The position numbers were made by a program, and so were the translations under genes. Of a stretch of DNA of 64,000 nt, positions 1-44,763 are shown in pieces; within the stretch, counting starts at the first letter, position 1; each line of letters opens with the position of its first letter. The notes beneath the pieces are model-generated. The model saw nothing but the letters and a program-made list of their open reading frames with translations, did not search any database and was not told the origin of the DNA. Origin of the DNA: Planctomycetota bacterium (GTDB lineage: Bacteria > Planctomycetota > Planctomycetia > Pirellulales > Pirellulaceae); the NCBI GenBank assembly GCA_046343015.1, contig JBKDOL010000030.1, forward strand, positions 87,619 to 151,618, in the 5' to 3' direction.

Positions 1-1
1 C

Positions 2-1540: not shown

Positions 1541-1580
1541 GTCCGACGCGCTGACTCGCCTTCTACAGCGCTTGGTTCAG

Positions 1581-4638: not shown

Positions 4639-4694
4639 CCTGATCGAGAGGTCCTTTTTCCGGCGTTTCCGCAGGTCGATTTCTGGAGTCAGCC

Positions 4695-24131: not shown

Positions 24132-24170
24132 TGACTCGCGGGATTGACTCGCGGGATTGACTCGCTTGGA
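24132..24170. repeat. tandem direct repeat, 3 x 13 bp (tgactcgcgggat)
   Basis: Two perfect units plus tgactcgcttgga. Lies in the divergent region between the ECF sigma gene and the AAA+ gene. Confidence 0.9.
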
Positions 24171-24471
24171 ACGGCATTTGGGCCGAACCAACCGATTCCC
24201 GCTGGGTCCACGGCGACGTCGCTCTGCTGGACACCCTTCAGTGACCGGACGATTCCAACCCGTGCAGCGGAAAAAAATCAGTCCCCAGCCCCCGGTGCCG
24301 ACTCAGCCAACGGCATTAAAAAAGCCCGTCAAAACCGGCAAATTCGGCAAGCGGTATTCCAACTGCCCTGTTTTTCATGGAAACATTCCCCCCCAAGATC
24401 GCTCTCAACCGCTTTTCCGTGTTGAGGACCTATTCTTCGCCTGCAGCCACCTAACCCGGGAATTGATCCAG

Positions 24472-25893
24472 ATGCACTCCCCTCAAACAAACTACGCCAG
24501 CTCCGCACAGTCCGAAGACCGATTAAATGATTTGCTCGCTCGGTTGCACAATTTCACCGCGCTCACTCCTCCGACCCAGGCTTCGTCCGGGGTGCAAGGT
24601 GGAATTGGCTTAAATGCCGAAGGTGAGTTCCTGCCGGCAGCGCCGCGCTCCTTGGCAGAGGCAAAGGTATCCGAAGCACTCGTCGAGGATCTGACGCTCA
24701 AGCTGCTTTTGGCAAAGGGAGAGGCCTCGATCCGCCAAATCTCCGACCAGCTCAAGTTGCCCTTCGCCATCTGTGAGCAGTTGGTTTACAAGCTCAAGCA
24801 GGAACAACTTTTGGCCTTTGTCAATCATGCCAAGGCTGGTGACTTTTCCTGCCGACTCTCCGAGACGGGGCGAGACCGCGCTCGGCGGCTCTCTGATATC
24901 TGTTCGTATTTTGGCTCGACTCCCGTAGCGTTTGAGGATTATGTCGAGAGCGTCAAGGCTCAAACGATCGCCAATCAGAATCCGTCCCTCTACGATTTGC
25001 AGCTCGCCTTTTCCGACTTGCAAATCTCCAATGAACTGCTGCTCCGCCTCGGTCCGGCCATCAACAGCGGGCGCGGCATGTTCCTGTTCGGCAATCCAGG
25101 TAATGGCAAAACGAGCATTGCCGAGCGGGTTACCGCCGCTTTCGGTGAGTACATCTGGGTTCCTCGGGCTATCTCAATTGACAAGGACATCATCCGCGTC
25201 TACGACCCGATGAATCATCAGGAAGTGCCCTTCACCAAGGAGAATGCCAGCCCAACCGACCTGCTGTCGGACGACTCGCTCGACCAGCGTTGGGTGCGAA
25301 TCAAACGGCCCACGATTGTCGTCGGCGGTGAGTTGCGGTTAGAGCACCTCGAAATACAACACAATCTGGCGACGGGAACATCCGAGGCTCCCGTTCAAAT
25401 GAAAAGCAACTGCGGAGTCTTGCTGATCGATGACTTCGGTCGCCAAAAGATCTCGGTTGCCGACCTTTTAAATCGCTGGATTGTTCCATTGGATCGTCGC
25501 CATGACTACCTGACCACAACCAGTGGCAAAAAGATTCAGGTGCCGTTTGACCAGCTGGTTATCTTCTCCACCAATCTCGAGCCGCGGGACCTGGTTGACG
25601 ATGCCTTCCTTCGACGGATCCCTTACAAAATCGAAGTCCCCGATCCGAAGCACAGTGAGTTTGTGTCGCTGTTTGAGATCATGTGTGAGCGGATGAACTG
25701 TCCCTGGAACCGGGCGATGGTCGACTACCTGATTGAGACTCACTACCTTCCGGCCCAACGTCCCTTCCGGAACTGCCATCCCCGCGACATTCTTCTGCAA
25801 GTCAAGAACTACAGTGCCTTTATGGGTCTGCCGTTCCAAATGACCAAGCAAAACCTCGACTGGGCTGTCGAAAGCTACTTCTCGGTGATGTAG
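24472..25893 (+). CDS. AAA+ family ATPase with N-terminal winged-helix-like domain
   Basis: Walker A GNPGNGKTS, Walker B VLLIDDFG and DDAFLRRIPYKIEVPDP (arginine/sensor region of classical AAA). N-domain LKLLLAKGEASIRQISDQLKLPFAICEQLVYKLKQEQLL. Start moved to ATG 24472. Confidence 0.85.
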   Translation: MHSPQTNYASSAQSEDRLNDLLARLHNFTALTPPTQASSGVQGGIGLNAEGEFLPAAPRSLAEAKVSEALVEDLTLKLLLAKGEASIRQISDQLKLPFAICEQLVYKLKQEQLLAFVNHAKAGDFSCRLSETGRDRARRLSDICSYFGSTPVAFEDYVESVKAQTIANQNPSLYDLQLAFSDLQISNELLLRLGPAINSGRGMFLFGNPGNGKTSIAERVTAAFGEYIWVPRAISIDKDIIRVYDPMNHQEVPFTKENASPTDLLSDDSLDQRWVRIKRPTIVVGGELRLEHLEIQHNLATGTSEAPVQMKSNCGVLLIDDFGRQKISVADLLNRWIVPLDRRHDYLTTTSGKKIQVPFDQLVIFSTNLEPRDLVDDAFLRRIPYKIEVPDPKHSEFVSLFEIMCERMNCPWNRAMVDYLIETHYLPAQRPFRNCHPRDILLQVKNYSAFMGLPFQMTKQNLDWAVESYFSVM

Positions 25894-28837: not shown

Positions 28838-30481
<1,644 letters not shown>

Positions 30482-30573
30482 ATCGATGAGCTCACCGAGG
30501 GACGCCTGACCCGCCTGAGAGGCATTCAGGCGTCAACCGGGTCCAACAGGACCGCTCATCACAAAAGCCTCAA

Positions 30574-30641
30574 GGGCCAATTGGCATTCGGGGCCAATTG
30601 TCATTCAGGGCGAAGTAACATTCAGGGCGAAGTTCGGGCAA
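30574..30641. repeat. mosaic tandem repeat, 4 x 17 bp (gggccaattggcattcg, gggccaattgtcattca, gggcgaagtaacattca, gggcgaagttcgggcaa)
   Basis: Read directly. Lies between the groEL stop and its terminator, and the last unit forms the left arm of the terminator stem. Confidence 0.85.
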
Positions 30642-30659
30642 CCGGCTTCGCCCTTTTTT
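30625..30659 (+). terminator. intrinsic terminator of groESL
   Basis: 8-bp GC-rich stem gggcgaag (30625-30632) / cttcgccc (30646-30653), 13-nt loop, then TTTTTT (30654-30659). Confidence 0.7.
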
Positions 30660-30804
30660 CTTGGCCCCACAGCCGGGGCGATTCTTGGACCAGACCGCCA
30701 CCCCGCTTGCAGTCCTGACTACAATGAAAACTCCCGGGCGAAACACCGGGATTTGGCCCTCAATCAGATTCCCTCCCACCCAGTTAACCGGCGACGATCC
30801 ATCC

Positions 30805-31689
30805 ATGACCACTCCGCTCTCGACTCGCTTCTTTGCCGGCATCATTCTCAGCGCTTTGTTTGTCGCGACTGCTCAGGCTCAAGAGACAGATTTGACAATC
30901 CTCAACAACCGCACGGGAGACAAGCTCGAGTTCCCCCAGCTGGTCGCGCAATTGCAAAGTTCCGATGTGATTTTTCTTGGGGAAAAGCACGATAATGACG
31001 CCGGTCATGCGATGCAGTTGAAGGTCATCGAGGCACTCCATGCGGCCGGCTGCGACCTGGCGATTGGCATGGAACAGTTTGAACGCGATACGCAAGGAGC
31101 GGTCAACGATTACCTCGCGGGCAAAATTACGGAGGAACAGTTTCTCGCAGCTTCCCGCCCCTGGAAGAACTACCCCGAGCACTATCGGGCGATCGTGGAG
31201 TTTGCCAAGGCCAACAAGCTGCCCATTCTGGCGGGTAACCTGCCCCGTAAACTCGCGACCGCCGTCTCCGAGGGCCGAGAGTTGGAACCGCACGAACAAG
31301 TCTTCGCCGCTCGCTCTACCAGCGCCCCGCAAGATCGCTACTGGACCAATTTCCTGCGAACCATGCAGGGTCACATGGGCGCGGACGGTGATGACAAACT
31401 GCTGAAGTTTTACGCCGCCCAGTGCGCCAAAGATGATGCGATGGCCGAGGCGATCACCGATCATCTCGCCTCCAATCGGCATCGCCCGCGGCAAGTGGTT
31501 CAGCTGTGCGGGCATTTTCACTCTGATTACGGCCTAGGCACCGCGGCCCGAGTACAAAGCCGAATGCCGCTGCTTCGCTCCAGCATCGTGACGATGGAAT
31601 CGCCTCCGGCTGAAGACGCGAAAGCCTCTCCGCTGGAGGCCGATCGCGCTCACTTCACGCTGCTGACGCCGGCGAACCCACCCAAGTAA
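30805..31689 (+). CDS. ChaN-family (haem-binding/Tiki superfamily) secreted protein
   Basis: Signal peptide MTTPLSTRFFAGIILSALFVATAQA. DVIFLGEKHDNDAGH, IGMEQFERDTQ and CGHFHSDYGLG are typical of ChaN/PF04187 as I remember it. Start moved to ATG 30805. Confidence 0.78.
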   Translation: MTTPLSTRFFAGIILSALFVATAQAQETDLTILNNRTGDKLEFPQLVAQLQSSDVIFLGEKHDNDAGHAMQLKVIEALHAAGCDLAIGMEQFERDTQGAVNDYLAGKITEEQFLAASRPWKNYPEHYRAIVEFAKANKLPILAGNLPRKLATAVSEGRELEPHEQVFAARSTSAPQDRYWTNFLRTMQGHMGADGDDKLLKFYAAQCAKDDAMAEAITDHLASNRHRPRQVVQLCGHFHSDYGLGTAARVQSRMPLLRSSIVTMESPPAEDAKASPLEADRAHFTLLTPANPPK

Positions 31690-31711
31690 TCCAGCGACCT
31701 CCCGCGGAACT

Positions 31712-33271
31712 TTAGAGCCGTTCCCGGGACCCGTCCGGTGGCAAAGGCTTCCGCTGCGTCTCCTGACGCAATCGGGCCAGCAGTACCGTGTCGATTCGGG
31801 CCCTCACGGTGCGGCGGTCCAACCCCAAACGCTCCGCCGCCCGCTCGTAAGTGCCCAATTGAAAGTAGGCCCAGGTACAGTATTTTCCCAGCAGCGCATC
31901 CGCGCTCAACGAGCAATCACCCGAGCCCTCCAGCCAGCTTGGTTCCCTCACCGGCGCTGCGACCGGGCGGAGAGCCTCTTCGCCGCGAAGCAAGACACCC
32001 CGAACACACTGCTCCAACTCGCGAATATTCCCGGGCCAGCCGTAATGGTCCCCCAACTGTCGGCCAATCCAAGCCAACGCCTGGTCGGCCAAGCGGCCGG
32101 CTCCCTCTGGACCGGTTACCTTGACGGCGATGTACCGGACAAGCGCTGCCAAATCCTCGGGACGCTGCTGAAATTGCTCGGCCAGCGATGGGGTCCGCAC
32201 TTGATCAGCGCAGAGCCGGTAGAACAGGTCTTGCCGAAATCGTCCCTCTTGAATCTCACGCGGCAAGTCACGATTGGTCGCAGCAATCAGCTTGCCTTGA
32301 AAAATCTGCTCGGCGGTATCGCCAATTCGGCTGTAGGTCCGCTGCTGAGTCACTCGCAGCAACTTCACCTGCAGTGAACCATCCAACTCGCCAATTTCAT
32401 CAAGAAACACCGCGCCATGTTCGGGACAGGACTCCAGCCACCCCACGCGATCTGAGACTGCTCCGGTAAATGAACCGCGGCGGTGACCAAACAACTCCGA
32501 CTCAATCAGCGTCGCCGTGAGCGCGGCGAGATTCACCGGCCGAAAACTTTGGCTGGGCGAACCGATAAACTTTTCCTTGCGGCTGTCAAAGGGAATGTAA
32601 AGCGATTGTCCAATGGCTCGCGCGACCAACTCCTTGCCAGTCCCTGTCGGACCGGTAATCAAGGTAGGGATATCGCGCATCCGCGCGTGAAGCCCGTCTC
32701 GGTAAGCCCGCATGTCGTGCGTGAAGATCGACTGCCATACGGCCCCCCTCAAGGCAATGATCGCATTCGATTCGCCCACGATAAAGTCAAAAATGTTCAG
32801 GAACGCCCGATGCACCTGGACCAAACAGGCAAACAAATGCTCTGCCGTCGCCAAGCTCCGTGCTCGCTCCGGCAAAATCCGCCCCAGTTCCTCGTAGTCA
32901 CCGCGAAAGTCCCGCCAGATTTCAGCGATGACCCGCTGCTCTTCCAACTCGCTCACCGAGTGTGCTGCGATGTGGCGGTAGAGCAGCACATAGGCGACCA
33001 GGTCGCCATAGCGAGCCAGTTCACTTTGAGTCAGTTCCCCCCCTGCCGCCACATGCCCGGCGACTTGGCGGACGGCGGCCTCGGCTCGCAGGCCGATTTT
33101 CTCCAAATTGGGACGCTCTCCGGCACGCTGCTCGCCCCGCCGACTCCAGGCCGACGCGTCCGCTACGAACTCACGCCCCAGCAGTTGTCGCTCGCGGTCC
33201 ATCCGCTGCACGGAAAACGGATTGCTGAAGGCCAAATCCGCCAATGCCGCCAATTCCTTCCGCCAAACCAT
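31712..33271 (-). CDS. sigma-54-dependent transcriptional activator (bacterial enhancer-binding protein) with an unrecognised N-terminal sensory domain
   Basis: Walker A TGPTGTGKELVA, Walker B GAVFLDEIGEL, sigma-54 contact loop ESELFGHRRGSFTGA (GAFTGA variant), RQDLFYRL, and C-terminal HTH ERAAERLGLDRRTVRARI. No receiver, PAS or GAF motif seen in the first ~190 aa. Confidence 0.9.
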   Translation of the reverse strand: MVWRKELAALADLAFSNPFSVQRMDRERQLLGREFVADASAWSRRGEQRAGERPNLEKIGLRAEAAVRQVAGHVAAGGELTQSELARYGDLVAYVLLYRHIAAHSVSELEEQRVIAEIWRDFRGDYEELGRILPERARSLATAEHLFACLVQVHRAFLNIFDFIVGESNAIIALRGAVWQSIFTHDMRAYRDGLHARMRDIPTLITGPTGTGKELVARAIGQSLYIPFDSRKEKFIGSPSQSFRPVNLAALTATLIESELFGHRRGSFTGAVSDRVGWLESCPEHGAVFLDEIGELDGSLQVKLLRVTQQRTYSRIGDTAEQIFQGKLIAATNRDLPREIQEGRFRQDLFYRLCADQVRTPSLAEQFQQRPEDLAALVRYIAVKVTGPEGAGRLADQALAWIGRQLGDHYGWPGNIRELEQCVRGVLLRGEEALRPVAAPVREPSWLEGSGDCSLSADALLGKYCTWAYFQLGTYERAAERLGLDRRTVRARIDTVLLARLRQETQRKPLPPDGSRERL

Positions 33272-33284
33272 ACGTCACCAGAAA

Positions 33285-33323
33285 AGTACATCTCAAGGAC
33301 ATTGATTGCATCAAATGTACATC
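33285..33323. promoter_or_regulatory. candidate upstream activator sites: aGTACATC (33285-33292) and tGTACATC (33316-33323), 31 bp apart
   Basis: Directly repeated 7-mer with a palindromic GTAC core, ~95-130 bp upstream of the sigma-54 promoter. That is the usual distance for enhancer-binding protein sites. Confidence 0.35.
33302..33314. promoter_or_regulatory. palindrome TTGAT-tgc-ATCAA (T-N11-A, LysR-box-like)
   Basis: Perfect 5+5 inverted repeat with a 3-nt spacer. The same TTGAT-N3-ATCAA core occurs at 37245-37257 upstream of the LysR gene. Confidence 0.35.
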
Positions 33324-33417
33324 ACAGCCACTCGATTTCATCGGCAATTGGCGTCTGCCTGTTAAAAATTCTCGTCTTTTTTGCAGTATTTGCCAGGCTC
33401 TCTGGCCACCCGGACTT

Positions 33418-33433
33418 TGGCATTTGAGTTGCT
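33418..33433 (+). promoter_or_regulatory. sigma-54 (-24/-12) promoter TGGCAT-ttgag-TTGCT
   Basis: Matches the TGGCAC-N5-TTGCW consensus with correct GG/GC spacing. It lies 50 bp upstream of ATG 33483 and is divergent from a sigma-54 activator gene. Confidence 0.65.
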
Positions 33434-33482
33434 TTGTTGGGTAAGACCAGCTTTGAATCCGTTCGCAATCCGGAGTTGAACC

Positions 33483-36029
33483 ATGAACAACGAATCACAA
33501 CCCTGGGAACCGGTGGCTTCGAATGCCGCCGACCCGGGTCGCACGCCCCTCTCACCTCCGGGAGCAGAGCAAGCCCCCGAATCGACGACACCTTCGAGAC
33601 AAATGGGGTGGCTGGACCGATTACTCGACCCGGAAACACTGCAACGAATGATGGCCTGCGGAGGTGGCCTGTTGATCCTGGGGTTCATCGTATGGCTCTG
33701 GTCCTGCGGTGTCTTCGAAAACCCGCGCGTTTTGGCGGTCGCCGTGGGGAGTGTTAACCTCGTTCTGATCGGCGTCGGGATCATGCTCGTCCGCTCCACC
33801 CGATACCAACTGACCGGCCAGGGCCTGGCGTTGCTCGGCAGCCTCGCCCTGCCACTCAACCTCTGGCTGTATCACGCCCAAGGGTTAATCGTGATTTCGG
33901 CCGGCGGGCACCTCTGGGTTCCGGCGCTCGCTTGTTGTTTGATTTACGCCGCCGTGGCTCGCAGTCTGCGCAACCCCCGCTTTGTCTACGCGCTCGTGGC
34001 GGGAGTTATCCTCACTGGCCTGCTGTTTCTGGCCGACCGCCAAGTCAACCGTTTCTGGGAAGTACTCCCGGTCGCTACATTGCTGGCCACGATTGGCTCG
34101 GTGTGCGCTGTGGCTGCCAACTTTTTCCCGACGGCTGGAGATTTTTCTCGCGACCGCTTCGGCAAGGCCTTTCTTCGAGCCGGGCAAATCACGCTCACAT
34201 CGGGCTTAACCTTGCTGGCAGGTGGTCAACTGCTCGCGCTGCTTGCCGAAAGAATTCCCTTTACTGATTTCCTTCCCGTCCCCACTGACCTGCTCGCAAG
34301 CGGTGTGCAGAAGTGGTGGGCCAGCGGGTTGACTCTCGGCGCTCTCGCCGTGCACGTTCTGCTCGGTCTTGGCCGCACCAGCCTGTTTAATCGAACCTCC
34401 AGTATCGCCTTGGCTGGTTGGACGATCGGCAACATCCTGCTCGCCCTCGACATTTCTCTCACCTTGCAGGCCTTCATCATCGGGCTGAGCCTATTGGTCG
34501 TAGCGATGAATGTCGCCCGCTTGGCTCGTCGAGATTGGGAGACCGCTGAGCCCGAGACCCGTTTCCCGCCGCTGGGTCAATGGATGGGCTCACTGTCCAG
34601 CGCCGGTCTGGCTCTCTGGAGTGTTTGCCATTTCGCCTGGGCCATTTCCGGGGACCTTAACCACCTCGGGCAGGTCGAGTGGACCGTTTGGACGACGATT
34701 CAGTTTGCGCTCGCGGGATTGGCTTGCTGGACCAGTGACCGCCTCTGGTGGTCGCGTTCAGTGCGTCTCCAGACCTTGGTCCCGATCTATCTCGGTTCCT
34801 TCGCGCTGTCGCTTGCGGCCGTGACGCTCATTGCCACTGCCGGTTTGACAACGCTCCCCCTCGCCCTGCTCGGTCCAGCCCTGATGGGGTTGGCCATCAC
34901 CATCGCCGGCTTTTGGCTGGCTGCGGAGACTGGCCCAAGTTGGCGCCATGCTGCTCTGGGTTGCGTGACCGCCGTGATCGCTTTGGCAGTGCTCAACGTA
35001 GCCACAGCGCCCCGCCTTTTCTCCGAAAACCAGTTGCATTGGATCCTGATCGGACTGCTGAACGCCGCCATCTGCGGCTGGCTGTCAGTCTCGCAGCGAA
35101 GCGCGACAGCGAGCATTGGCTTTGCTCTCTTGCTTTCGTTCTCGACGGCAGAAGCTATCTCACTGACCAGCTTGAGCTTTGACTACTCCCTGCTCGTTGC
35201 ACTCAGCGGTTTGGGTTTGACCAGCCGCTTGATCAGCCGCTTTTCGCGTCTGCATCCAGACGGAAATCTTCCGGAGGGACTGGGAGGAAATCTGCTTGGA
35301 GTTTGCGGTGGGCTGGGGAGCGTGCTCCTCGCGTTGTCTGAATTGGCCAGCGGCGAAGCGACTTTGGGACTGCTCGGTTTTCTTGCCCTGCAGGCCATCC
35401 TCAGCGGCTTGCTCAGCCTTTTGACCCGTTCGGAAGGACTGGCCATGACCTTCCGGCCAATCGCCTACAGTTGCATCGTCCTTGCCGGAATCGTCCTGTT
35501 CCAGGTGGCTGATTTGAACCCTGCCCAAAAAGTCGAGTTGCTGGCCGCGTCTATCGGCCTGCTGATTCTCGCCCTCAGCCACTGGGGTTTGTATCGCGAA
35601 CAAATCGCGGCCAAAACCGATGAAGCCGTGACTCTGGGACTCTGGCTGGGCTCGGTGACAGCAGTGATTCCATTGCTGGCGGGCTTGTTTGTGTACCGCA
35701 GCGGAGTCGTTGAGGACCCGGCTTGGCTCTGGGGACATGAACTGGGAGTTCTGCTGGCCGGCTTGTCGATGTTCGGCATCGGTTCGCTGCTGCAAACGCG
35801 GGCGACGACCCTTGTCGGGGGAACGACGCTGCTCCTCTACGTAGCCAGCCTGCTGTTCCTCGTGCCTTGGCCGGACCAACTGCAGAGCACATCGGTTTTG
35901 ATGATGATTCTCGGCGGGCTCTTCTTTCTGGTCGCGATTTTGCTCAGCGCTTATCGCGAACGGCTGGTGCAGATCCCCGAGAAGATGAAAACTGGCGAGG
36001 GAATCTATCAGGTATTAAAGTGGCGATAA
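33483..36029 (+). CDS. large polytopic integral membrane protein (848 aa, more than 20 hydrophobic helices), function unknown
   Basis: Pro/Ser-rich cytoplasmic N-terminus, then an almost continuous series of L/A/G/V-rich helices to the C-terminus. No catalytic motif recognised. Confidence 0.8.
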   Translation: MNNESQPWEPVASNAADPGRTPLSPPGAEQAPESTTPSRQMGWLDRLLDPETLQRMMACGGGLLILGFIVWLWSCGVFENPRVLAVAVGSVNLVLIGVGIMLVRSTRYQLTGQGLALLGSLALPLNLWLYHAQGLIVISAGGHLWVPALACCLIYAAVARSLRNPRFVYALVAGVILTGLLFLADRQVNRFWEVLPVATLLATIGSVCAVAANFFPTAGDFSRDRFGKAFLRAGQITLTSGLTLLAGGQLLALLAERIPFTDFLPVPTDLLASGVQKWWASGLTLGALAVHVLLGLGRTSLFNRTSSIALAGWTIGNILLALDISLTLQAFIIGLSLLVVAMNVARLARRDWETAEPETRFPPLGQWMGSLSSAGLALWSVCHFAWAISGDLNHLGQVEWTVWTTIQFALAGLACWTSDRLWWSRSVRLQTLVPIYLGSFALSLAAVTLIATAGLTTLPLALLGPALMGLAITIAGFWLAAETGPSWRHAALGCVTAVIALAVLNVATAPRLFSENQLHWILIGLLNAAICGWLSVSQRSATASIGFALLLSFSTAEAISLTSLSFDYSLLVALSGLGLTSRLISRFSRLHPDGNLPEGLGGNLLGVCGGLGSVLLALSELASGEATLGLLGFLALQAILSGLLSLLTRSEGLAMTFRPIAYSCIVLAGIVLFQVADLNPAQKVELLAASIGLLILALSHWGLYREQIAAKTDEAVTLGLWLGSVTAVIPLLAGLFVYRSGVVEDPAWLWGHELGVLLAGLSMFGIGSLLQTRATTLVGGTTLLLYVASLLFLVPWPDQLQSTSVLMMILGGLFFLVAILLSAYRERLVQIPEKMKTGEGIYQVLKWR

Positions 36030-36088
36030 GCACACCAGGTCAGCAGAAACAAACTGCTCAGTTGGTCTACTGCCAAGCTGGTTTCTCA

Positions 36089-36123
36089 CTGCGAGCCCTC
36101 ACCCGGCTCGCAGTTCTTTTTTT
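36089..36123 (+). terminator. intrinsic terminator of the membrane-protein gene
   Basis: 9-bp stem ctgcgagcc (36089-36097) / ggctcgcag (36105-36113), 7-nt loop, followed by ttcttttttt. Confidence 0.72.
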
Positions 36124-36130
36124 GGCTGGC

Positions 36131-37198
36131 TTACTTCAAACTCAGGTCAGGTTTGAATTGTTCTTTCTGTTGCTCGAGGATCCTGTTCCACAACTCTCGA
36201 GCTTCCGGCCGGAGATCGGGAAGGTTTCGACCGTAGAGTCGTCGTGAGATGAGCCGCACGGTTTCGGGCGGAAAGTCGTCCTCCGAGAGTTTGCGAGCAG
36301 CTTTCATGACCTTTTCCCGGTCGCTTCGTTTAAATTCCACCAGGAAGTTATCCAAACTCTGCTTGGTGACAATCCCCACCCCCGTCCCGGCCAAGGCAAA
36401 GCGCAAGACCGCTTCGACACTGTCGACTTCAACGGCAATTTCAGGAGCAAGTCCGACGTCTCGATGGTACCATTCCTCGATCAGTCGCCTTTGTAGAGAA
36501 CCCGGTTCAGTCAAAACCAAAGGCACGCCGACGAGGTCCGTTGCCCTTAAAGGGCGTCGGGTCGAGAGGCCTTCCCAGTGCTTTCGCCAGTCGGGGAAAT
36601 ACGATGGTTTGGTAACCGCCAGAAAGCGATCCTGATAAAGTTCCTCGACGTACAACTCGACTCGGGCATACTCGAAAATGGTCACCGGGTCCTCAGTTAC
36701 CAAGGCGAAATCGAATTGTCCCGCCGCGACTCCTTCGATTCGCATCTTGCTCGGTGGCGCCGACAATCGGACGCGGGGATGTTGTGGTTGCCTCAAATAG
36801 GCTTCCACCGCCTTGCCAACCAGACCGACCGCTTGCGCCTGGTCGCAGGCCACCGAAAGCACGGGAGGAGCTTTGCTCGTCTCCGCAATGAATCGCTCGG
36901 CCTGCTCGTAGCGTCGCAATAAGTCCGCCACGACCCCCAACACGCGCTGGCCTTCGGCCGTGACCAGCCATTTTTTCCCCTTCAAAAGCAGCCAGGGCTG
37001 CCCGCCCAAACTGGTCGCTTTGTCGCGCAAGGCGGAGATTCGCCGCGACATGCTCGGTTGGGTAATCCCCAAAATTCTTCCCGCCTCAGCCGCATCACCG
37101 TCATGCTCCGCGATCAAGACAAAGGTCTGGAGCAATTCCACTGGGAGGTTTAACCCTCCCAAAAAGGAGGTCTCAAGATCGCCACTCGTTTTTGCCAT
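36131..37198 (-). CDS. LysR-family transcriptional regulator (with ~60-aa C-terminal extension)
   Basis: N-terminal HTH LQTFVLIAEHDGDAAEAGRILGITQPSMSRRISALR followed by a substrate-binding-type domain. 355 aa. Confidence 0.9.
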   Translation of the reverse strand: MAKTSGDLETSFLGGLNLPVELLQTFVLIAEHDGDAAEAGRILGITQPSMSRRISALRDKATSLGGQPWLLLKGKKWLVTAEGQRVLGVVADLLRRYEQAERFIAETSKAPPVLSVACDQAQAVGLVGKAVEAYLRQPQHPRVRLSAPPSKMRIEGVAAGQFDFALVTEDPVTIFEYARVELYVEELYQDRFLAVTKPSYFPDWRKHWEGLSTRRPLRATDLVGVPLVLTEPGSLQRRLIEEWYHRDVGLAPEIAVEVDSVEAVLRFALAGTGVGIVTKQSLDNFLVEFKRSDREKVMKAARKLSEDDFPPETVRLISRRLYGRNLPDLRPEARELWNRILEQQKEQFKPDLSLK

Positions 37199-37242
37199 GC
37201 TGCTTACCTTTCGAATTCCCAGTCCGTTAGCATGCTTGGCGA

Positions 37243-37259
37243 GTTTGATTTAATCAAAC
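37243..37259. promoter_or_regulatory. perfect 17-bp palindrome GTTTGATT-T-AATCAAAC (T-N11-A LysR box) 45 bp upstream of the LysR gene
   Basis: Read directly. Its position and T-N11-A architecture fit an autoregulatory LysR-family operator. Confidence 0.45.
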
Positions 37260-37548
37260 CTTGCGCTTTCCGCATTTTGGCCCGATGTCGATTCCCTCCC
37301 CTCCCGGGAGCAATTCCCGAGGGGATTGCTTGCAGAAAACGGCAAGTTTGCCCGCAGCCAGCCAGCAGGTGCCAACGAAAAATTTATCGCCCTGTTCCCC
37401 CCGTTTAGTCCAAGATTTGTCCCGCCCACGTCCCACTTCAGTCGCCTTTACCGGGCAGAGAGCGACAAAAAAGGATTGGGCCGAACGCCCGTTTAGTCAA
37501 AGCGAGCCCGGTGCGCTCCCTGCCGCATTGGCCGAGACCGGACCGCTG

Positions 37549-37622
37549 GGAAAAAACAAGGCCGCCGTCTTCGGCAGCTGCTCAGGGAAAATTCCGCTGA
37601 GAACTGCCGCTGACGGCGGCCT
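37549..37622 (-). terminator. intrinsic terminator downstream of the VirD4/TraG-like gene
   Basis: On the minus strand there is a long hairpin with an 11-bp closing stem (aggccgccgtc 37559-37569 / gacggcggcct 37612-37622) plus inner pairs ggcag/ctgcc and ctcag/ctgag. It is followed by TTGTTTTTTCCC. Confidence 0.55.
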
Positions 37623-37679
37623 GAAAAGGACTTGCTCTCGATTCACCTGCTGTCGACCGGTTGCAGGCGATTCCGTGAG

Positions 37680-39959
37680 CTAGAACGGAACGTTGCTTTC
37701 ACCCTCCCCCGACAAATCGTCTGCGGCCTGGCTGGAGCCACGCGTCCCCTTTCTCCCCTCGTCCCCCGACTTCTTCCGCGACGCTCGGGGTCCGTCCTTC
37801 GGCTCGCCCTTTGCTTCATCCTTCGACTTGCCGTTGCGACGGCGCGATTTGGACGCGTCCAGCTTTTTGCTGAACCGCAAATAGGCAATCATCACCTCCG
37901 GATCGAATTCCGGATGCTCTTTCATGGTGTAGTAGTACTCCGCCACGTTCGACTTGATCTCGATCAATTCCGAGACCAGCCGGAGCAATCCCCGAAGGCG
38001 CTCCCGATTCTCCGTGAGATAAGCATCCCACCACGACTTGACCCAGGAGAAAGCTGATTCGTAACCGAGTTGATCGAGGCCCTGCCGGATCCCACGGATC
38101 AAGTCTTCGTCCGACCAGTCCCTGACGTCGTCCGCCGTAAAGTGGAACGGAAACTTCAGCTGCACCGGCGGCTTTTTCCTCTGTGGTTCCCGAGTCGACC
38201 GCTTGCCGGCTCGCCGATACCGATTCGGCAAGCGCCGCTCGCGGAGGCGCTCCGTGCCGGTGATCGTTCGCGCCGCAGCCAGCACCTGGCGATATTCGGG
38301 GACCTCGTAAGAGAACTGCAGGTAAGCCTGAAATACGACCTCTCCCAACAGGAACGTCGCCGGTCGCCCAAGCAGAAAATGGCCGTACTCAGGCGAGCGA
38401 ATATCCGTGGGGGAAAGGAGCGGTAGGGTCAGGTACTGGTTGGCATGCCCGGAACCCCCCGACTGCCGCACCAACTGCTGTCCGCTGGCGCGAGAGAAGT
38501 ATTCGGCATCCTCCTGACTGCAGCCAGGCAGGACAATCTGATTGCCAAATGCTTCCAGAACCGCTGGCCCCGAGTGCGGAAACGCCTGATAGAGCGCGGC
38601 GATCGACTGGCAACCGGCAACCACGGCAATTTTGCGGGATCGGAGCGTCAACAACCGCTCAACCGAGAACACCGGTCCCAGCGAGGGGAGGTCATCGACA
38701 AAAATGGTCGCCGGCACGGCCGATTCTCCCAGTCGCTGCGCCGTTGCGATCAGCTTGTCGACAATACATCGCATCAACATCTGAACCAGTGGCAACGCCG
38801 TCTCGAGCGTCGCCTCGTCGACTTCAATCTGCAGGCAGACCGGCTGCTCAAATAATTCATCCAGCTGCAGCTCGTCGCGCGACATTACCCGTTGAATGCT
38901 CTCTTGCTGGAAAGCAACAAACGCCCCGACGATCGTGGCCTCGGTGGTGTCGGCATTCCACGAACCACCCCCGAGAAAGTCAGCCATCTTGCGGGCGTGA
39001 GCGTTGTCCAGTTGCTCCAGTCCCTGCACCATCGCCTTCCGGGATTGGCTGTAAAAGCGGAACATTTCGGGAAAATTCCGATATCCCCCCTCAAACAGCG
39101 CGAGCAATCCCGTGCGGAACATCTGAGTCCAAAACTCCGAGTCGCCGGAACGGGGATTGCGACTGGATTCAGCAAGGCGGCGAATAATGTCGGGAGCTTC
39201 GTTTTTCGAAGCCGTGCGCAGCGGATTGAAACCGACGCTGCGCCAGTCATCTGCAAAGTTCACCACCAGACACCGCTTCCCCACCCGCTCGCAAGCGGTC
39301 GCAATCGGCCCATAATCCGAGGACTTGAGCGACACTGAAATCACGGTCTGCGACCGGTCGCAGAGCGCCGAATAACGGGTCAAATCGATAAACCGGGTAT
39401 TCTTTCCGCCGCCCGATTTTCCCACGACCACCGCGTGCGTCGAGCGCTCTCGCGACTGCCAAACCAGCGATAAACCGTAATGCGGCTCGCGCTGCATGAC
39501 CGGTTGCCCCTCGATCCGCAACAGCGGCACAGTCGCCGGCAATTCCAACGAGCCGGACTCAAAGTCCTGCAAATAACGCTGGAGATCACCCAAGACCGGA
39601 TGCCTCGCCCCGGAGACATATTCAAAAGGACTTTGCGGAGGCCGGTCGGTTCCCTGGTCGGAGCGCAGCATGTCGCAACTGGTCGGGTCGTAAATCCAAC
39701 CCAAGTCCTGACTTTTGCGCGGCGAAGCCGGCAACTCGCCGCTCTGCGACTCGCTCCCCGACTCCGCCAATTCCTCGGCACTGGACCTGGGCAGCGGATC
39801 GGTTTGCCCCTTTCCATCGCCAGCCGAGTTCCGCCCGCTCCCCGCCGCCTCGTCTTTGTCCGGCGTTTGCGACCGGTCGTCACCGCGGTGATGACCAGCC
39901 TTGTCTCCCGGCCCATCATCCTCCGGGCCCTGCTCATCCCACCAACCAATTTCACTCAT
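37680..39959 (-). CDS. VirD4/TraG/TraD-type (type IV coupling protein-like) P-loop ATPase lacking transmembrane segments
   Basis: Walker A-like HAVVVGKSGGGKNTRF, Walker B-like PATIFVDDLPSLG, and KIAVVAGCQSIAALYQAF (QSxxQL signature of TraG/VirD4/TrwB). First ~150 aa are D/E/G/S-rich with no hydrophobic helix. There is an extra helical C-domain and a K/R/S/G-rich tail. Confidence 0.78.
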   Translation of the reverse strand: MSEIGWWDEQGPEDDGPGDKAGHHRGDDRSQTPDKDEAAGSGRNSAGDGKGQTDPLPRSSAEELAESGSESQSGELPASPRKSQDLGWIYDPTSCDMLRSDQGTDRPPQSPFEYVSGARHPVLGDLQRYLQDFESGSLELPATVPLLRIEGQPVMQREPHYGLSLVWQSRERSTHAVVVGKSGGGKNTRFIDLTRYSALCDRSQTVISVSLKSSDYGPIATACERVGKRCLVVNFADDWRSVGFNPLRTASKNEAPDIIRRLAESSRNPRSGDSEFWTQMFRTGLLALFEGGYRNFPEMFRFYSQSRKAMVQGLEQLDNAHARKMADFLGGGSWNADTTEATIVGAFVAFQQESIQRVMSRDELQLDELFEQPVCLQIEVDEATLETALPLVQMLMRCIVDKLIATAQRLGESAVPATIFVDDLPSLGPVFSVERLLTLRSRKIAVVAGCQSIAALYQAFPHSGPAVLEAFGNQIVLPGCSQEDAEYFSRASGQQLVRQSGGSGHANQYLTLPLLSPTDIRSPEYGHFLLGRPATFLLGEVVFQAYLQFSYEVPEYRQVLAAARTITGTERLRERRLPNRYRRAGKRSTREPQRKKPPVQLKFPFHFTADDVRDWSDEDLIRGIRQGLDQLGYESAFSWVKSWWDAYLTENRERLRGLLRLVSELIEIKSNVAEYYYTMKEHPEFDPEVMIAYLRFSKKLDASKSRRRNGKSKDEAKGEPKDGPRASRKKSGDEGRKGTRGSSQAADDLSGEGESNVPF

Positions 39960-41300
39960 GCTGTCACCCCTTCCTCAATCCAAACTCCAAACCATCCAAC
40001 CGCTATCGCGAAACCACTTCCCTATGGTCACAACACCTTCTAAACTTTGTTTTTTGGTTTTCATGCTTTTTACGCATGGTCGAGCGCGGACTGCAATCAA
40101 TCGGGATAACTGCCTATGCGTTCACTGGCCCACTCACGGCCATCAGAAAATCATTTCTCCGACTGAGCCCCCCACGCCCCGCTTTTCCGGCACAGCCAAC
40201 CAAGCCGTCGCCGAAAATCCAGCTCAGACAATCCCAACTCGAATTCCGCCAATCCCTTGCTCACTCAGACCGAGAAAGTCCCGCGGGGTTCGCGGCCACC
40301 TCACGCAGGCCCCGACCCTCAACTCGACGCCGTGCTCCCCCGCAGTCAGTCCGTGACTTTGGAAACGATCCCCTAAAACAAAACTGGTTTGGATAGTCTC
40401 TGGATCGCGGCAAAGAACTCACATCGCCACCGTCCTGCAAACTGCCCTCCCGGCTGAAAGCTTCCTCGACTCATGTTTTGATCAAGCTATCAATCAAAAG
40501 CGGGAAGTCCAGCCCCTCAGTCCGCTCCCCGGCGACAATGGCGGAGCTACCGCCGATCTCGCCTCACCGGGCTCGATCAGCTGGTTTTCCCGCACTCTTC
40601 CGAATTTTCTGGCTCATTCTTCCTTCATGCAAAAAACGCATGCTTTCGGAAAACGCTGCAAATGGCGCGTTTTAAGGCAGGGGCCGATTCGCCGCCAATG
40701 TAAGCTTTTTTTTCGGACCGCTGCGGACAATTCGCCTCGGGGGGCTGTGGAAAACCCGTTGATCGCACTGCGCTAAAATTCCGCTTGCCAATCGATGGGC
40801 CCCGAAGCCACCCTGAACGGCGCCCTGGCAATCCCATCCTGCTGAGATCCGATCTTTTCGCCTTCTGCTTCGCCTTGTGAAGAAAACGGCTCCGACTCTC
40901 GCTTGCAGGTCGCCCCACTGTCCAGCCATGGTGAAAACCACCAACCCAAAACCATAGCTTCTCTGAGTTTCTTTTCCCCCGCGATGGTCGATATTTTGGG
41001 ATAAGCGGTTCGGCAAGAGCCGCCGTCTTTGAAACAGCGCAAGAGCTCGGGGTGATAGTCTCGGTCACCTCGAGCTCTTTCCGTTCGCGAATCGCCGATC
41101 ACCTACTCGGCGACGCACTGTTTATCAGTCAGACGCTCTGTTCATCAGTCAATCGCCGGCCCACCCGCCACCGCAAAGCCAGCCCCCCCACTCTGGGCGG
41201 TAGTCCTGAAATGCGTCCAGCTGCTCACCAAGTTGCTTCTGGCAGAGTGGTTGGCCAGCCAAGTTTTCGCTTCTGGTGCGCACGGGTTACCGCTGCCGGC

Positions 41301-41972
41301 TTAACCGTGCTCTAACACCCATTGGACTGCCTGCCGATTGAGTTCAGCAGCATTCCTGACCCCCAATTTTTTCTTGATGTTCTCCCGATGCGAATCAATC
41401 GTATGCGGACTGAGGAACAACTGGTTGGCAATGGCACTGGTCGTCATGCCGGAACCGATCAAGCGAAAAATCTCCATCTCGCGATTGGTCAACAGTTCGG
41501 CTGGACTGGAACCAAATGTTCGGCGGCGGACAACTCGGGCCAGCATCCGTTGCTTCATTGCTTCACTGAGATAGCAATCGCCACGCATGACGACGCGGAT
41601 CGCTTCAATCAGTTTTTCATTTGACTCCTGCTTGTTCAAATAACCATTGGCCCCGGCCCGCACGGCGCGCTCTGCATACAGTGACTCTTCGAAACCGCTG
41701 ACTACCAACATCTTGACCTGCGGGAACTTGGCAGCGAGTTGCTCGATCAGCTCGAGGCCATGGCTGGCCTTCAAGGCAATATCGACAATCACCAGATCCG
41801 GCCGCGTCGCTTCAACCTTTTCCAGGGCCTGAACCACGTTCTCGGCTTCTCCGCAAACTTCCAGATCAGACTCTGCTGAAATCCGCAAGTTGAGTCCGTC
41901 GCGAACGATCGGGTGATCATCGACAATCAGAATCCGTAGCCTCGTTTTTAGTTCTGACATAACGTTACTCAA
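41301..41972 (-). CDS. NarL/FixJ-family response regulator (REC + LuxR-type HTH)
   Basis: LRILIVDDHPIVRDGL, DLVIVDIALK (phospho-Asp context), and HTH LTNREMEIFRLIGSGMTTSAIANQLFLSPHTIDSHRENIKKKLG. Confidence 0.93.
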   Translation of the reverse strand: MSNVMSELKTRLRILIVDDHPIVRDGLNLRISAESDLEVCGEAENVVQALEKVEATRPDLVIVDIALKASHGLELIEQLAAKFPQVKMLVVSGFEESLYAERAVRAGANGYLNKQESNEKLIEAIRVVMRGDCYLSEAMKQRMLARVVRRRTFGSSPAELLTNREMEIFRLIGSGMTTSAIANQLFLSPHTIDSHRENIKKKLGVRNAAELNRQAVQWVLEHG

Positions 41973-44763
41973 TCACTCCCCCCGGAATTCGACAGCGGAG
42001 AATCGTTCCGTTGCCTAAGCTCGAAACCAACTCCAGTTGGCCGCCCAACAAGTTTGCCCGGTAGTTCATCATCTTCAGCCCCATTCCGCGGGGGCGCCGC
42101 TCGCTCTGAAAGTCATCCTTTAACGCCCCCCTCCCCAAAATCGATTCAAGTCGCGATGTATCCGCCTCACGGCGTTCCAATCGAGAGGAACCGGTCGGCA
42201 TTCCTGCCGTAGCATTTCGCCGAACCTCCATTCCCACGCCATTGTCGCGAATCTCCAGTTCGATCCCATCGGCCAAGGACCGCAATGAGACTCGCAGATG
42301 ACTCGCCTTGCCATGCCTTAAGGCATTATTCACGGCCTCCTGAGCAATTCGATACAGATGCGTGGCGACTGAGTTGTTGGCGACCGGAACCGTAGTGGGA
42401 CAACTGAATTCACACCGAACCCCCGTCTCCTGATTCAATTGATTGATCAATTCCGCCAAGGCGGAAACCAGCCCTTCGGCGTCAATCTGGACGGGCATGA
42501 TCCCATGCGACAGGGCTCGAACCTGTCGATTCGCTTCCCCCAAGCCTAAAGATAAACGTGCGAGGGTCTGCTGAATTCGCTGCCAGTCCTGCTCGTTCAG
42601 TTGCCAGACATTCCCTTCCTGTCCAACCACCTCTTGAGCCTGCGCTAACACCTTCTCCAGCGTGGACGCATACAACCCCAAACCGGTCAATTGCTGCTGG
42701 GTCCCGTCGTGCAATTCTTGACCGATTCTTCGCTGCTCGTCAGCCGCCACCTCCAACACATGCTGCTGAAGTTCACGCAATTCGGAGATGTCGCGCATGA
42801 TCCCCGTAAAACCGTGACGGCCGTTGGCACTGACCGAGATATCGACCGGGAAGATCGTGCCATCCTTCCGCCTCGCGAAGACCTCCCGACTGCTCCCCAC
42901 GAGTCTGGCTTCGCCGGTGTCCCGATACCGTTTGAGAAAGCCGTCATGGGTGTCCTGCGAGAGCGGCGAAAGCAGCGCGACGTTCCGCCCCAACAGTTCC
43001 TCGGGGGCATAACCGAACATCTTCTCGGTCGCCGGATTCACCGAGACAATTACCCCTGAATTGTCAATCGTGACGATCGAATTGAAGGCGTTATCAAAAA
43101 TTGCCCGCAAGCGATCTTCGCGGTCCCGCAGGGCAAGCTCTGCCTGCTTTCTTTCGGTGACATCGCGGACAATCGCCACGTACTGCCGATAGTTGCCCGA
43201 ATCGTTGGTCAGCGGCGTGAGGAAGACTTCACCCAGAAATGATGAACCGTTCTTCCGGTAGTACATCAACTCAGCCCCACAGGACAGCCCTTGCTCCAGG
43301 CGGGCGATCATCTCCTCAACATTTTGATTTGTTTGTTCACCAAAGAAAATCGAGCCTGGAGCACCCAGCAACTCGTCCTGCCGATACCCGGTCATTCGAC
43401 AGAGGGCTTCATTTACGAATTCAAACCTCGGACCGTTGCCGTCAAACGGCCCACCGGCAATTGCAACTCCCTCGCCTAAATTCGAGATCGCGCGGTGCAG
43501 CAGCAGAAGTTCACGATTTTGCGCCGATACCCGTCGCTCCAAGTCGACCTGACTTTCCTTCAACCGATCCGTCAGCTCCTTGAGTTCGCTGAAGTCCTCA
43601 GCAAACACGACGACTCCCCCAACTTCCCCAGTCGGTTCCTGCCAGGGACGCAGCTCACCGCGTACCCAGATCGACTTTCCGTCTCGACAGGTCCAGCGGT
43701 CGCTGTCGAAAGTGACAACCTCCCCCGCCAAGGCCCGCTCCAGCTTGGCTCGCCATTGGAGCGGGTCTTGGGAAAAGCAGGTGTGACACAGCTCACTCTG
43801 CTTCAAACCCACGACACTTTGCTCGCCGGGAACGAAATCGGCTCGCCAGCGGTGACTGACCGCCAGATACCGAAAATCAGCATCAAACATCGCGAGTGCC
43901 ACCGGGGCGTTTTCGACAAATACTCGCAAGAGCCGCGCGCTCTCCTCTCGCAACAGTTCTGCTTGCTTCCGCTCGGTGACATCGAGATTGACACCGACAA
44001 TCCGCTCCGGCCTCCCCTGCCCATCGCGATAAAGCCGCCCGAGCCCCCAGAGCCAGCGCGTCCCCAGTTGCGGGTGCTGGATCTGATATTCCTGCCGCCA
44101 TTCATCTCGCTCGTCTGACTGGATCAGGCTCTGCAAACTTTCCTGAATTCGCTCCCGGTCAGCCGGATGCAGGCGTTCGACCCAGGCACTGACGGTCAGC
44201 GGTTCGGTCTCACTGAATCCGTACAATTGCCGATAGCCTTCCCCCGCTTCATAGTGATCGCCATCGCTGATTACCCAGCACCAGTTCATGGCCCCCGAAG
44301 AGCGGAGTGCCAATTCCAACTGCTCCTCCCTTTCCATGAGCAGTTTTCGATCGGCTTCAGCAGCCGAATCATCCAGCACAATCGCCAGCAACAGCTCCGC
44401 TGTTCCCTCCGCGCCACGCACCGTGCTACCGGTAAAGCGAACCGAGACGACGCTGCCATCTTTCCGCAAGTATCGCTTGCGAGTCTCATAATTGTGCAGC
44501 TCTCCGGCGACTAACTGGCAATATCGCTCCCGCTCCACACTCCGCTCAGCCGGATGGCACAACTCCTCAATCGCCATCCCCCGCAATTCAACTTCGCTGT
44601 AGCCGACAATTCTCTGGAACATCAGGTTGGCAAACAGCGGCCGCCGGCTGCGCGCATCGCAGAGGACCAACCCCGGTCCCGCCTGCGCGAACCATTTTTG
44701 AAAATCAGCCTGGTCGCCGATCAACGACTCCAGTTCGCGGGACGTTTCTGTTCCTTGATTCAT
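41965..44763 (-). CDS. multi-PAS sensor histidine kinase (HisKA_3 / NarX-type dimerisation domain)
   Basis: Several PAS/PAC segments, with two DVTERKQAEL junctions. H-box EQRRIGQELHDGTQQQL, N-box IAQEAVNNALRHG, and G-boxes IRDNGVGM ... GMGLKMMNYRANLLGG separated by a ~45-aa insert. 8-nt overlap with the response regulator gene. Confidence 0.9.
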   Translation of the reverse strand: MNQGTETSRELESLIGDQADFQKWFAQAGPGLVLCDARSRRPLFANLMFQRIVGYSEVELRGMAIEELCHPAERSVERERYCQLVAGELHNYETRKRYLRKDGSVVSVRFTGSTVRGAEGTAELLLAIVLDDSAAEADRKLLMEREEQLELALRSSGAMNWCWVISDGDHYEAGEGYRQLYGFSETEPLTVSAWVERLHPADRERIQESLQSLIQSDERDEWRQEYQIQHPQLGTRWLWGLGRLYRDGQGRPERIVGVNLDVTERKQAELLREESARLLRVFVENAPVALAMFDADFRYLAVSHRWRADFVPGEQSVVGLKQSELCHTCFSQDPLQWRAKLERALAGEVVTFDSDRWTCRDGKSIWVRGELRPWQEPTGEVGGVVVFAEDFSELKELTDRLKESQVDLERRVSAQNRELLLLHRAISNLGEGVAIAGGPFDGNGPRFEFVNEALCRMTGYRQDELLGAPGSIFFGEQTNQNVEEMIARLEQGLSCGAELMYYRKNGSSFLGEVFLTPLTNDSGNYRQYVAIVRDVTERKQAELALRDREDRLRAIFDNAFNSIVTIDNSGVIVSVNPATEKMFGYAPEELLGRNVALLSPLSQDTHDGFLKRYRDTGEARLVGSSREVFARRKDGTIFPVDISVSANGRHGFTGIMRDISELRELQQHVLEVAADEQRRIGQELHDGTQQQLTGLGLYASTLEKVLAQAQEVVGQEGNVWQLNEQDWQRIQQTLARLSLGLGEANRQVRALSHGIMPVQIDAEGLVSALAELINQLNQETGVRCEFSCPTTVPVANNSVATHLYRIAQEAVNNALRHGKASHLRVSLRSLADGIELEIRDNGVGMEVRRNATAGMPTGSSRLERREADTSRLESILGRGALKDDFQSERRPRGMGLKMMNYRANLLGGQLELVSSLGNGTILRCRIPGGVIE

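Follow-up and report, generated by a model that had tools for sequence, protein, structure and literature searches.

Organization of the locus

A 64,000-bp stretch of a Pirellulaceae genome (Planctomycetota bacterium; assembly GCA_046343015.1, contig JBKDOL010000030.1, positions 87,619 to 151,618), here termed the window, carries a gene for a bacterial enhancer-binding protein (EBP), which is divergent from a gene encoding an integral membrane protein composed almost wholly of transmembrane (TM) helices, with a -24/-12 promoter of the sigma-54 type located in the intergenic region between them (Table 1). A gene encoding a LysR-type regulator is convergent with the membrane protein gene. The original prediction, made from the sequence of the window alone, regarded these three genes as a single self-contained module, in which LysR and the EBP exert dual control over the membrane protein and LysR recognizes an operator palindrome shared between two promoters. 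Comparison with orthologous loci upheld the activator, the promoter, the membrane protein gene and the enhancer sites of this prediction, while LysR and the shared operator were found not to belong to the system. On the basis of these comparisons, it is probable that the locus represents a conserved two-gene sigma-54 cassette of the Pirellulales, consisting of a dedicated EBP, helically phased TGTACAT sites, a -24/-12 promoter and a single target protein with 26 TM helices. This core reading is strongly supported, as the gene pair, the promoter and the upstream sites are conserved across dozens of species.

Table 1. Features of the EBP-membrane protein locus and its flanks, in window positions (aa, amino acids; HTH, helix-turn-helix)
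Feature	Position	Strand	Remarks
EBP gene, 519 aa	31712-33271	-	All-alpha N-terminal domain, AAA+ domain and presumed C-terminal HTH, in that order
C-terminal HTH, aa 475-493	31793-31849	-	YERAAERLGLDRRTVRARI; presumed DNA-binding
AAA+ sigma-54 interaction domain, aa 197-440	31952-32683	-	Pfam, NCBIfam, structure homology
Walker B, aa 289-296	32384-32407	-	FLDEIGEL
GSFTGA loop, aa 266-271	32459-32476	-	Ortholog consensus GAFTGA
Walker A, aa 207-214	32630-32653	-	GPTGTGKE
N-terminal domain, aa 1-195	32687-33271	-	Presumed regulatory/sensor domain; conserved in 27 orthologs
Upstream activator sequence	33284-33326	.	Putative; four TGTACAT-like units, helically phased; ortholog conservation
TTGAT-tgc-ATCAA	33302-33314	.	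Where array unit 2 (…CATTGAT) meets unit 3 (TGCATCAA)
A5 and T6 tracts	33353-33381	.	Possible bend or architectural-protein site; inferred only
-24/-12 promoter	33418-33433	+	TGGCAT-TTGAG-TTGCT; exact consensus; predicted transcription start ~33443-33445
Integral membrane protein gene, 848 aa	33483-36029	+	26 predicted TM helices, N-in/C-in
Intrinsic terminator	36088-36124	+	10-bp stem, then T run; 3′ of the membrane protein gene
LysR regulator gene, 355 aa	36131-37198	-	HTH_1 and LysR_substrate; convergent with the membrane protein gene
Perfect 17-bp palindrome	37243-37259	.	GTTTGATTTAATCAAAC; T-N11-A type; 45 bp upstream of the LysR start (37198)
Intrinsic terminator	37578-37561	-	After the coupling protein gene
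VirD4/TraG-like type IV coupling protein (T4CP) gene	37680-39959	-

Conservation of the EBP-membrane protein gene pair

The comparative set comprised 80 membrane protein loci from other species, which were queried by tblastn with the proteins of the window. An EBP ortholog is divergent from, and adjacent to, the membrane protein gene in 45 of these 80 planctomycete genomes, with the EBP orthologs sharing 45-55% amino acid identity over their full length, including the N-terminal domain. All-against-all clustering of the open reading frames (ORFs) in the fetched loci gave 87 loci for the membrane protein, 52 for the EBP and seven, all from this genus, for LysR, and revealed no additional conserved neighbour. 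When approached from the EBP side, the gene opposite encodes a protein of 889-966 aa without Pfam domains in two of three sampled orthologs (Posidoniimonas corsicana and a JGI contig). Of the three-gene arrangement, the EBP-membrane protein pair recurs in other genomes, and LysR accompanies it in 0/80.

A LysR ortholog of 63% identity on a separate contig (L095, positions 1-4822) was compared with window positions 30661-39959. The gene order on this contig is T4CP, LysR and a convergent ChaN gene, with the T4CP and ChaN products sharing 60% and 77% identity with their counterparts in the window. The ChaN and LysR genes adjoin one another, and it is this junction that is filled by the EBP-membrane protein pair in the window, suggesting that the cassette was inserted in one lineage or lost in the other. 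As this LysR ortholog retains its T4CP and ChaN neighbours without an EBP or membrane protein gene between them, the pair behaves, as judged from synteny, as a cassette that does not depend on LysR.

In lineages that have neither the EBP nor the sigma-54 promoter, a Ser/Thr kinase gene is located 28-191 bp upstream of, and on the same strand as, the membrane protein gene in 5/28 of the EBP-less loci (L055, L066, L075, L079 and L083), with one of these kinases carrying a zf-HC2 N-terminus, while in L068 an extracytoplasmic function (ECF) sigma factor/WD40 fusion occupies the kinase position. Four of the five kinase-linked membrane proteins have an N-terminal extension of 150-200 aa, which is lacking in the L055 protein (846 aa). 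These arrangements suggest that the membrane protein gene has repeatedly become coupled to signalling proteins across lineages. Ser/Thr kinases are, however, very numerous in planctomycete genomes, such that some adjacency is expected by chance.

The predicted sigma-54 promoter

The consensus element originally proposed for this position can be read directly from the sequence. Its GG and GC dinucleotides are located at positions 33419-20 and 33431-32, respectively, and 50 bp separate its end from the ATG of the membrane protein gene at 33483. The exact sigma-54 pattern occurs once in the window, and both of the single-mismatch matches disrupt the -12 GC. Furthermore, a weighted scan of both strands returned position 33418 as the sole maximum-score site in the 64 kb, in agreement with the claim that it is the only good sigma-54 match in the intergenic regions.

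Promoters were compared across 46 EBP-membrane protein pairs, one from the species of the window and 45 from other genomes. In each of the 46, the highest-scoring sigma-54 match is intergenic and directed toward the membrane protein gene, taking the form TGGCAY-N5-nTGCW(TTA), with scores of 20-22 of 22 in 45 pairs and of 18 in L071. A promoter scoring 21-22 is also found in seven further Pirellulaceae loci with no adjacent EBP gene, several of which retain TGTACA sites, and the cognate EBP is presumably encoded elsewhere in these genomes. The conservation in orthologous loci on which the original prediction had made its promoter depend is thus borne out in the pairs and in these seven loci alike. 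When the locus is aligned with those of its relatives in the genus (L087, L089, L090 and L092; membrane protein identity 72-74% and 55%), TGGCAT and TGC are invariant and their flanks are variable. Orthologs labelled as Gemmataceae, Tepidisphaerales, Phycisphaerales and Planctomyces sp. SH-PL62 have neither the activator nor a sigma-54 promoter.

With respect to the cognate sigma factor, Rhodopirellula baltica has an annotated rpoN gene that is expressed (RB6491; PMC2754498), and a Salmonella strain mutated in rpoN can be complemented with the Planctomyces limnophilus gene (Leary et al. 1998, as cited in PMC3906078).

Putative upstream activator sites and intervening DNA

The units of the putative upstream activator sequence start at positions 33286 (GTACAT), 33297 (GGACAT), 33306 (TTGCAT) and 33317 (GTACAT); successive starts are 11, 9 and 11 bp apart. 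Relative to the EBP gene, the array occupies the region 15-52 bp before the start codon, making autoregulation of the EBP plausible; relative to the membrane protein gene, it is placed some 95-135 bp ahead of the -24 element. Two GTACATC sites, 31 bp apart, had been proposed as an enhancer pair. Both are present (33286-33292 and 33317-33323) and conserved, although the coordinates first given for them carry one extra 5′ base, and an enhancer function is supported, with the refinement that they constitute the outer units of an array of four. GTACATC occurs five times in the window against 1.83 expected, with two of the five occurrences falling in the EBP-membrane protein intergenic region.

The consensus of the ortholog sites is c.TGTaCATtg-AATGTACATC, with two to four TGTACAT units at an 11-bp period. 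Counting from the T of TGGCA, the proximal unit begins at -94/-95 or within -104 to -108 in 28 of the 46 loci, two positions that stand in helical register. As TGTACA is self-complementary, neighbouring units can also be read as a 7-3-7 dyad, TGTACAT-N3-ATGTACA, the geometry of which resembles that of the NtrC site, TGCACCA-N3-TGGTGCA. Within the genus, the alignment shows no change in the outer and proximal units although the surrounding intergenic DNA has diverged, and the same arrangement is found in the sister species.

Between the array and the promoter, the window contains an A5 and a T6 tract. Several Pirellulaceae orthologs have a T5-7 tract ~43 bp before TGGCA and others an IHF-like YAA-N4-TTGAT element. 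A/T tracts or IHF-like elements are thus placed, in many orthologs, about halfway from the activator sites to the -24 element, which suggests a possible conserved DNA-bending element. The IHF-like elements are located at about -40 to -55 from TGGCA, with the sequence TAACTCTTTGATTG in L053 and CCTAAGTCnTTT…GAAAC in L050, L052 and L056.

The enhancer-binding protein and its relation to known activators

The activator matches the Sigma54_activat family (PF00158; e-value: 5e-46; Bitscore: 156.9; gathering cut-off: 20.2), its AAA+ region is homologous to the structures of NifA, ZraR, NtrC, FleQ and PspF (e-values: ~1e-40), and Walker A, Walker B and a GAFTGA-type loop are present. As such, the AAA+ and GSFTGA motifs are intact, as had been stated in the original prediction, and the protein is, on sequence criteria, a bacterial EBP. 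The phenylalanine and threonine of the GAFTGA loop, which have been reported as critical, are both kept in the GSFTGA variant. An insertion of ~14 aa between Walker A and this loop is apparent in the ortholog alignment.

The N-terminal domain harbors the conserved motifs CNPF, AWSR, ERPN, YVLxYRH, HLFACLxQVRRAF and VWQSIFTHD, and its AlphaFold2 model is all helical (pLDDT: 86.3; pTM: 0.83). Residues 1-195 gave no match in Pfam or NCBIfam, and a Foldseek search of the domain against the PDB identified no fold match (best e-value: 0.5), in line with the earlier description of this domain as novel. At the opposite end of the protein, the DRRTVK core of the presumed HTH segment is nearly invariant among orthologs, and the phmmer alignment with ZraR (1ojl) extends to query residue 493, which corresponds to chain residue 302/304.

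The cassette resembles the classical NtrC, NifA and ZraR systems (glnAp2, nifH and zraP) in the Sigma54_activat AAA+ domain with its Walker A/B motifs and GAFTGA-type loop, in the presumed C-terminal HTH, in the dyad or tandem sites ~100 bp upstream of a GG-N10-GC promoter and in the A/T-rich DNA between sites and promoter. It differs from them in that the N-terminal ~190 aa are all-alpha and do not represent a receiver, GAF, PAS, V4R or CARF domain, as well as in the insertion between Walker A and the GAFTGA loop, the putative TGTACAT recognition sequence and the target gene. The arrangement of an EBP gene divergent from a sigma-54-dependent, membrane-related target, with sites in the shared intergenic region that overlap the EBP's own upstream region, such that autoregulation is plausible, recalls the pspF-pspABCDE locus. 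PspF, however, has no regulatory domain at its N-terminus and is under the trans control of PspA, whereas the EBP described here has a 195-aa N-terminal domain, and its locus has no PspA/IM30 homolog and a single 26-TM target. The best-scoring AAA+ similarity is to RtcR (NCBIfam RtcR e-value: 7e-59; PADLOC RtcR_PspF2 e-value: 2e-62), but this is restricted to aa 197-429, with no CARF Rossmann-like fold in the protein and no rtcA or rtcB gene near its gene.

Assignment to a named activator family was rejected, since every NCBIfam equivalog score (RtcR, PspF, NtrC, NifA and others) fell far below its cut-off. For PspF, a score of 145 against a cut-off of 443 was obtained for a protein with a 195-aa N-terminal domain, and for RtcR a score of 200 against 650, with an all-helical N-terminal model. 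A CARF- or receiver-type EBP was likewise discarded, given the all-helical model and the lack of a match to either domain type.

The membrane protein

The AlphaFold2 model of the membrane protein (pLDDT: 74.5) consists of 26 long hydrophobic helices, with no connecting loop longer than 18 aa, corroborating the earlier description of a protein made almost entirely of TM helices, for which a topology prediction had been recommended. Lysine and arginine residues number 19 in the even loops as opposed to three in the odd loops, which indicates an N-in/C-in topology. The terminator located 3′ of the gene suggests that it is transcribed as a monocistronic unit.

Conservation is concentrated in the first ~7 helices (aa 48-250) and the last ~5 (aa 680-848), with a variable middle. 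The invariant polar residues N126, Y130, Q133, H143, D185, E685 and H752 map to the predicted periplasmic helix ends, and this cluster hints at an envelope-facing site. Clustered at 50% identity, 1.84 billion representatives contain 677 clusters of this family, whose typical length is ~850 aa, and every named member seen belongs to the Planctomycetota.

The search of DUF and transporter profiles that had been recommended with the original prediction gave no match above threshold. Pfam, NCBIfam and PADLOC returned no match for the membrane protein, nor did Pfam at e-values up to 1 when the window protein was searched together with 24 aligned members; a PDB profile search yielded e-values of 6 or higher only, and the best Foldseek match in the PDB had an e-value of 0.038 and a TM-score below 0.3. 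A known transporter, GT-C enzyme, exosortase or DUF identity was rejected, as all five of these searches were empty. Sub-threshold matches to DUF2157 (PF09925; e-values: 0.007-0.0095) were obtained for two distant members over the conserved N-terminal TM bundle, but at 16 bits these lie below the 32.4-bit gathering threshold of that family. Weak zinc-ribbon matches were also observed in the N-terminal extensions of some distant members. As a low-confidence guess, the protein could be an inducible envelope-facing transporter or an envelope-maintenance factor.

A weak internal duplication can be discerned in the variable centre, where aa ~276-430 align with aa ~516-660 (hhalign probability: 76%; e-value: 2e-5; 142 columns). 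Members of 927-1004 aa occur in Lacipirellulaceae-type genomes (Aeoliella and Posidoniimonas; L030-L033, L040, L024/L025, L067 and L100), with a soluble N-terminal extension of ~100-130 aa and with the promoter located 415-490 bp before the TM core. The N-terminal extensions of the kinase-linked lineages and of Posidoniimonas contain no Pfam domain, FHA included. A strongly conserved Shine-Dalgarno-like motif, (T)TTCTGGGGAGAA(A), precedes the ATG of the membrane protein gene by ~8-12 nt in most Pirellulaceae orthologs (for instance L009, L013 and L022), and the flanking TTTCT…AGAAA could base-pair to enclose the GGGG. Its counterpart in the window, at 33470-33476, is merely CCGGAG.

The LysR gene and its palindrome

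The LysR product scores 79.9 against a cut-off of 28 for LysR_substrate and is borderline for HTH_1 (26.4 against a cut-off of 26.6). With terminators following both the membrane protein gene and the T4CP gene, the region is predicted to form three separate transcription units. LysR is found beside the membrane protein gene in this genus only, and neither LysR nor T4CP gave a tblastn match in the loci of the 80 other genomes. A metagenome scan with LysR recovered only near-identical relatives. The claim that LysR forms part of a self-contained module therefore fails, its linkage being limited to the genus and the 63% ortholog lacking both cassette genes, and LysR was rejected as a cassette component on the grounds of synteny and of the non-conserved palindrome on the activator side.

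The LysR-side palindrome is imperfect in the sister species (GGTTGATTTATTCAAAC and GTCTGATTTGATCAAAC) and absent upstream of the 63%-identical ortholog, so that the conservation anticipated for it was not observed. The gene has the HTH_1 and LysR_substrate domains typical of LysR-type regulators and a perfect T-N11-A dyad upstream of its start. In contrast to LysR-type autoregulators, it lacks a divergent target, lies downstream of a T4CP-like gene past a terminator and has a box that is conserved only within the genus. LysR and its palindrome represent a separate unit, linked to the upstream T4CP-like gene, and on sequence grounds LysR is probably autoregulated through this genus-specific T-N11-A box.

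Distant LysR homologs (43-48% identity; L096-L099) are divergent from a 145-aa gene, with NUDIX genes next to it. TCAD9 and TPR-S domains are encoded nearby in L096 and L097 and DUF4062/AAA_22 in L098 and L099, while a giant TIR-NB-ARC gene is located downstream in L096. This neighbourhood is conflict- or defence-island-like, and the window LysR, which follows an orphan VirD4-like T4CP gene, is unlike it in setting.

Proposed mechanism and alternative explanations

From the gene identities, the motifs and the conservation of the pair, the promoter and the sites, we infer the following course of activation. The divergently encoded EBP would bind the phased TGTACAT array through its C-terminal HTH, and its all-alpha N-terminal domain would perceive a signal. 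The AAA+ domain would then oligomerise and contact sigma-54 through the GSFTGA loop, with ATP hydrolysis opening the closed complex and resulting in monocistronic transcription of the gene for the 26-TM protein. The A/T-tract region between the sites and the promoter would probably aid DNA looping, and the array-bound EBP probably also regulates its own gene.

Several observations weigh against this scheme. The C-terminus of the activator has no match to Pfam HTH_8, for which reason the HTH assignment is an indirect one, and the sole sigma-70-like match that could serve as the activator's own promoter overlaps the start codon and was discarded. Within the array, unit 3 (TTGCAT) matches only weakly, and spacings of 11, 9 and 11 bp deviate from a strict 11-bp register. 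An RpoN box is absent from the 64-kb window and from 1.17 Mb of fetched loci. Finally, one of the three sampled EBP orthologs is not located beside a membrane protein gene, which, taken together with the loci that have only the promoter, indicates that adjacency is common but not obligatory.

The dual control originally envisaged would have LysR bind TTGAT-N3-ATCAA both at its own promoter and in the activator-site region, alongside the EBP and sigma-54. The window contains two copies of the palindrome TTGATNNNATCAA, where 0.05 would be expected, a count reached by one of 100 shuffles, so that the statement that a 10-base palindrome should occur by chance less than once per 64 kb holds true; both copies are in this cluster and fit the LysR-type T-N11-A pattern, and LysR remains adjacent in the genus-level relatives. 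The activator-side copy is, however, built from the tails of two conserved TGTACAT units, CATTG and CATCA, both of which are common among ortholog arrays, and it is missing from all four of the closest relatives (L087, L089, L090 and L092), in each of which LysR still adjoins the membrane protein gene. The shared operator is accordingly better read as an array-unit junction. Moreover, LysR is not beside the membrane protein gene in any of the 80 other genomes, its 63% ortholog retains T4CP and ChaN without the EBP, the membrane protein gene or the palindrome, LysR is convergent with rather than divergent from the membrane protein gene, with a terminator between them, and the palindrome match was found post hoc. 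Dual control is therefore very improbable. Still less credence can be given to a fortuitous -24/-12 match, with the membrane protein gene transcribed from a housekeeping- or ECF-sigma promoter and the EBP regulating something else. Orthologs in the Gemmataceae and similar groups clearly function without a sigma-54 promoter, but a near-consensus element occupies the equivalent position in 52 independent genomes, is invariant amid variable flanks, co-occurs with the EBP gene and the phased sites, and is the single best sigma-54 site in the window.

A further possibility is that the membrane protein also acts as a sensory or feedback partner, as in Psp or a sequestration circuit, with the EBP N-terminal domain docking on its cytoplasmic face and the state of the membrane, or the occupancy of the protein, gating the EBP. 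We regard this as unlikely, though less so than dual control: the EBP carries no known sensor domain, be it receiver, GAF, PAS or another, conservation in the neighbourhood is confined to the two tightly paired genes, and in EBP-less lineages the kinases (5/28 loci) or, in one case, the ECF-sigma/WD40 fusion stand upstream of the membrane protein gene. On the other hand, the cytoplasmic loops do not exceed 15 aa, the N-terminal tail is poorly conserved, the kinases are numerous enough for chance adjacency to be expected, and the membrane protein family occurs without the EBP in many lineages. The same modest likelihood attaches to a broader scheme, in which the locus would be a planctomycete-specific membrane- or envelope-state circuit with Psp-like logic but unrelated parts, and in which kinases or ECF-type sigma factors would replace the EBP in other orders.

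To our knowledge, few sigma-54 regulons have been experimentally defined in planctomycetes, which carry sigma-54 and several EBPs. The two-gene cassette offers a clean and testable regulon, with a dedicated EBP, a defined motif, a consensus promoter and a single target, and it is present in cultured strains of Aeoliella, Mariniblastus, Botrimarina and Posidoniimonas; LysR and the shared operator should not be counted in it. It also draws attention to two uncharacterised modules, namely the ~190-aa all-alpha EBP input domain and the 26-TM family with its periplasm-facing polar cluster, neither of which has a Pfam family or a structural relative. The regulatory mechanism is an ordinary one, while the input domain and the membrane protein family are new.

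Other features of the window

The remainder of the window consists of ordinary chromosomal housekeeping genes, with genes for the haem-binding protein ChaN and for GroES/GroEL located upstream of the activator gene. An Rfam scan of window positions 30000-42000 returned zero RNA families. A 20-bp tandem repeat, GACGCACTGTTCATCAGTCA, is located at 41112-41151, in a 1.3-kb gene-poor gap between the T4CP gene and a gene for a LuxR-type response regulator. The window has two copies and a sister metagenome-assembled genome (L004, 17630-17749) six, and the coordinates of downstream genes are shifted by multiples of 20 bp in five of six same-species assemblies; in the sixth (L001) the shift is 99 bp and TRF found no repeat. 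The repeat is a strain-variable variable-number tandem repeat.

Downstream of a gene for an ECF-type sigma factor (Sigma70_r4_2; 23248-23952), and in the same orientation, lies a gene for a 677-aa protein without Pfam domains (unit at 21215-23952, minus strand). A 578-aa gene (24157-25893, plus strand), likewise without a Pfam match, is divergent from this unit. The ECF-sigma gene and its two neighbours, a few kb upstream of groES/EL, may represent another unit of a regulator and proteins of no assigned family.

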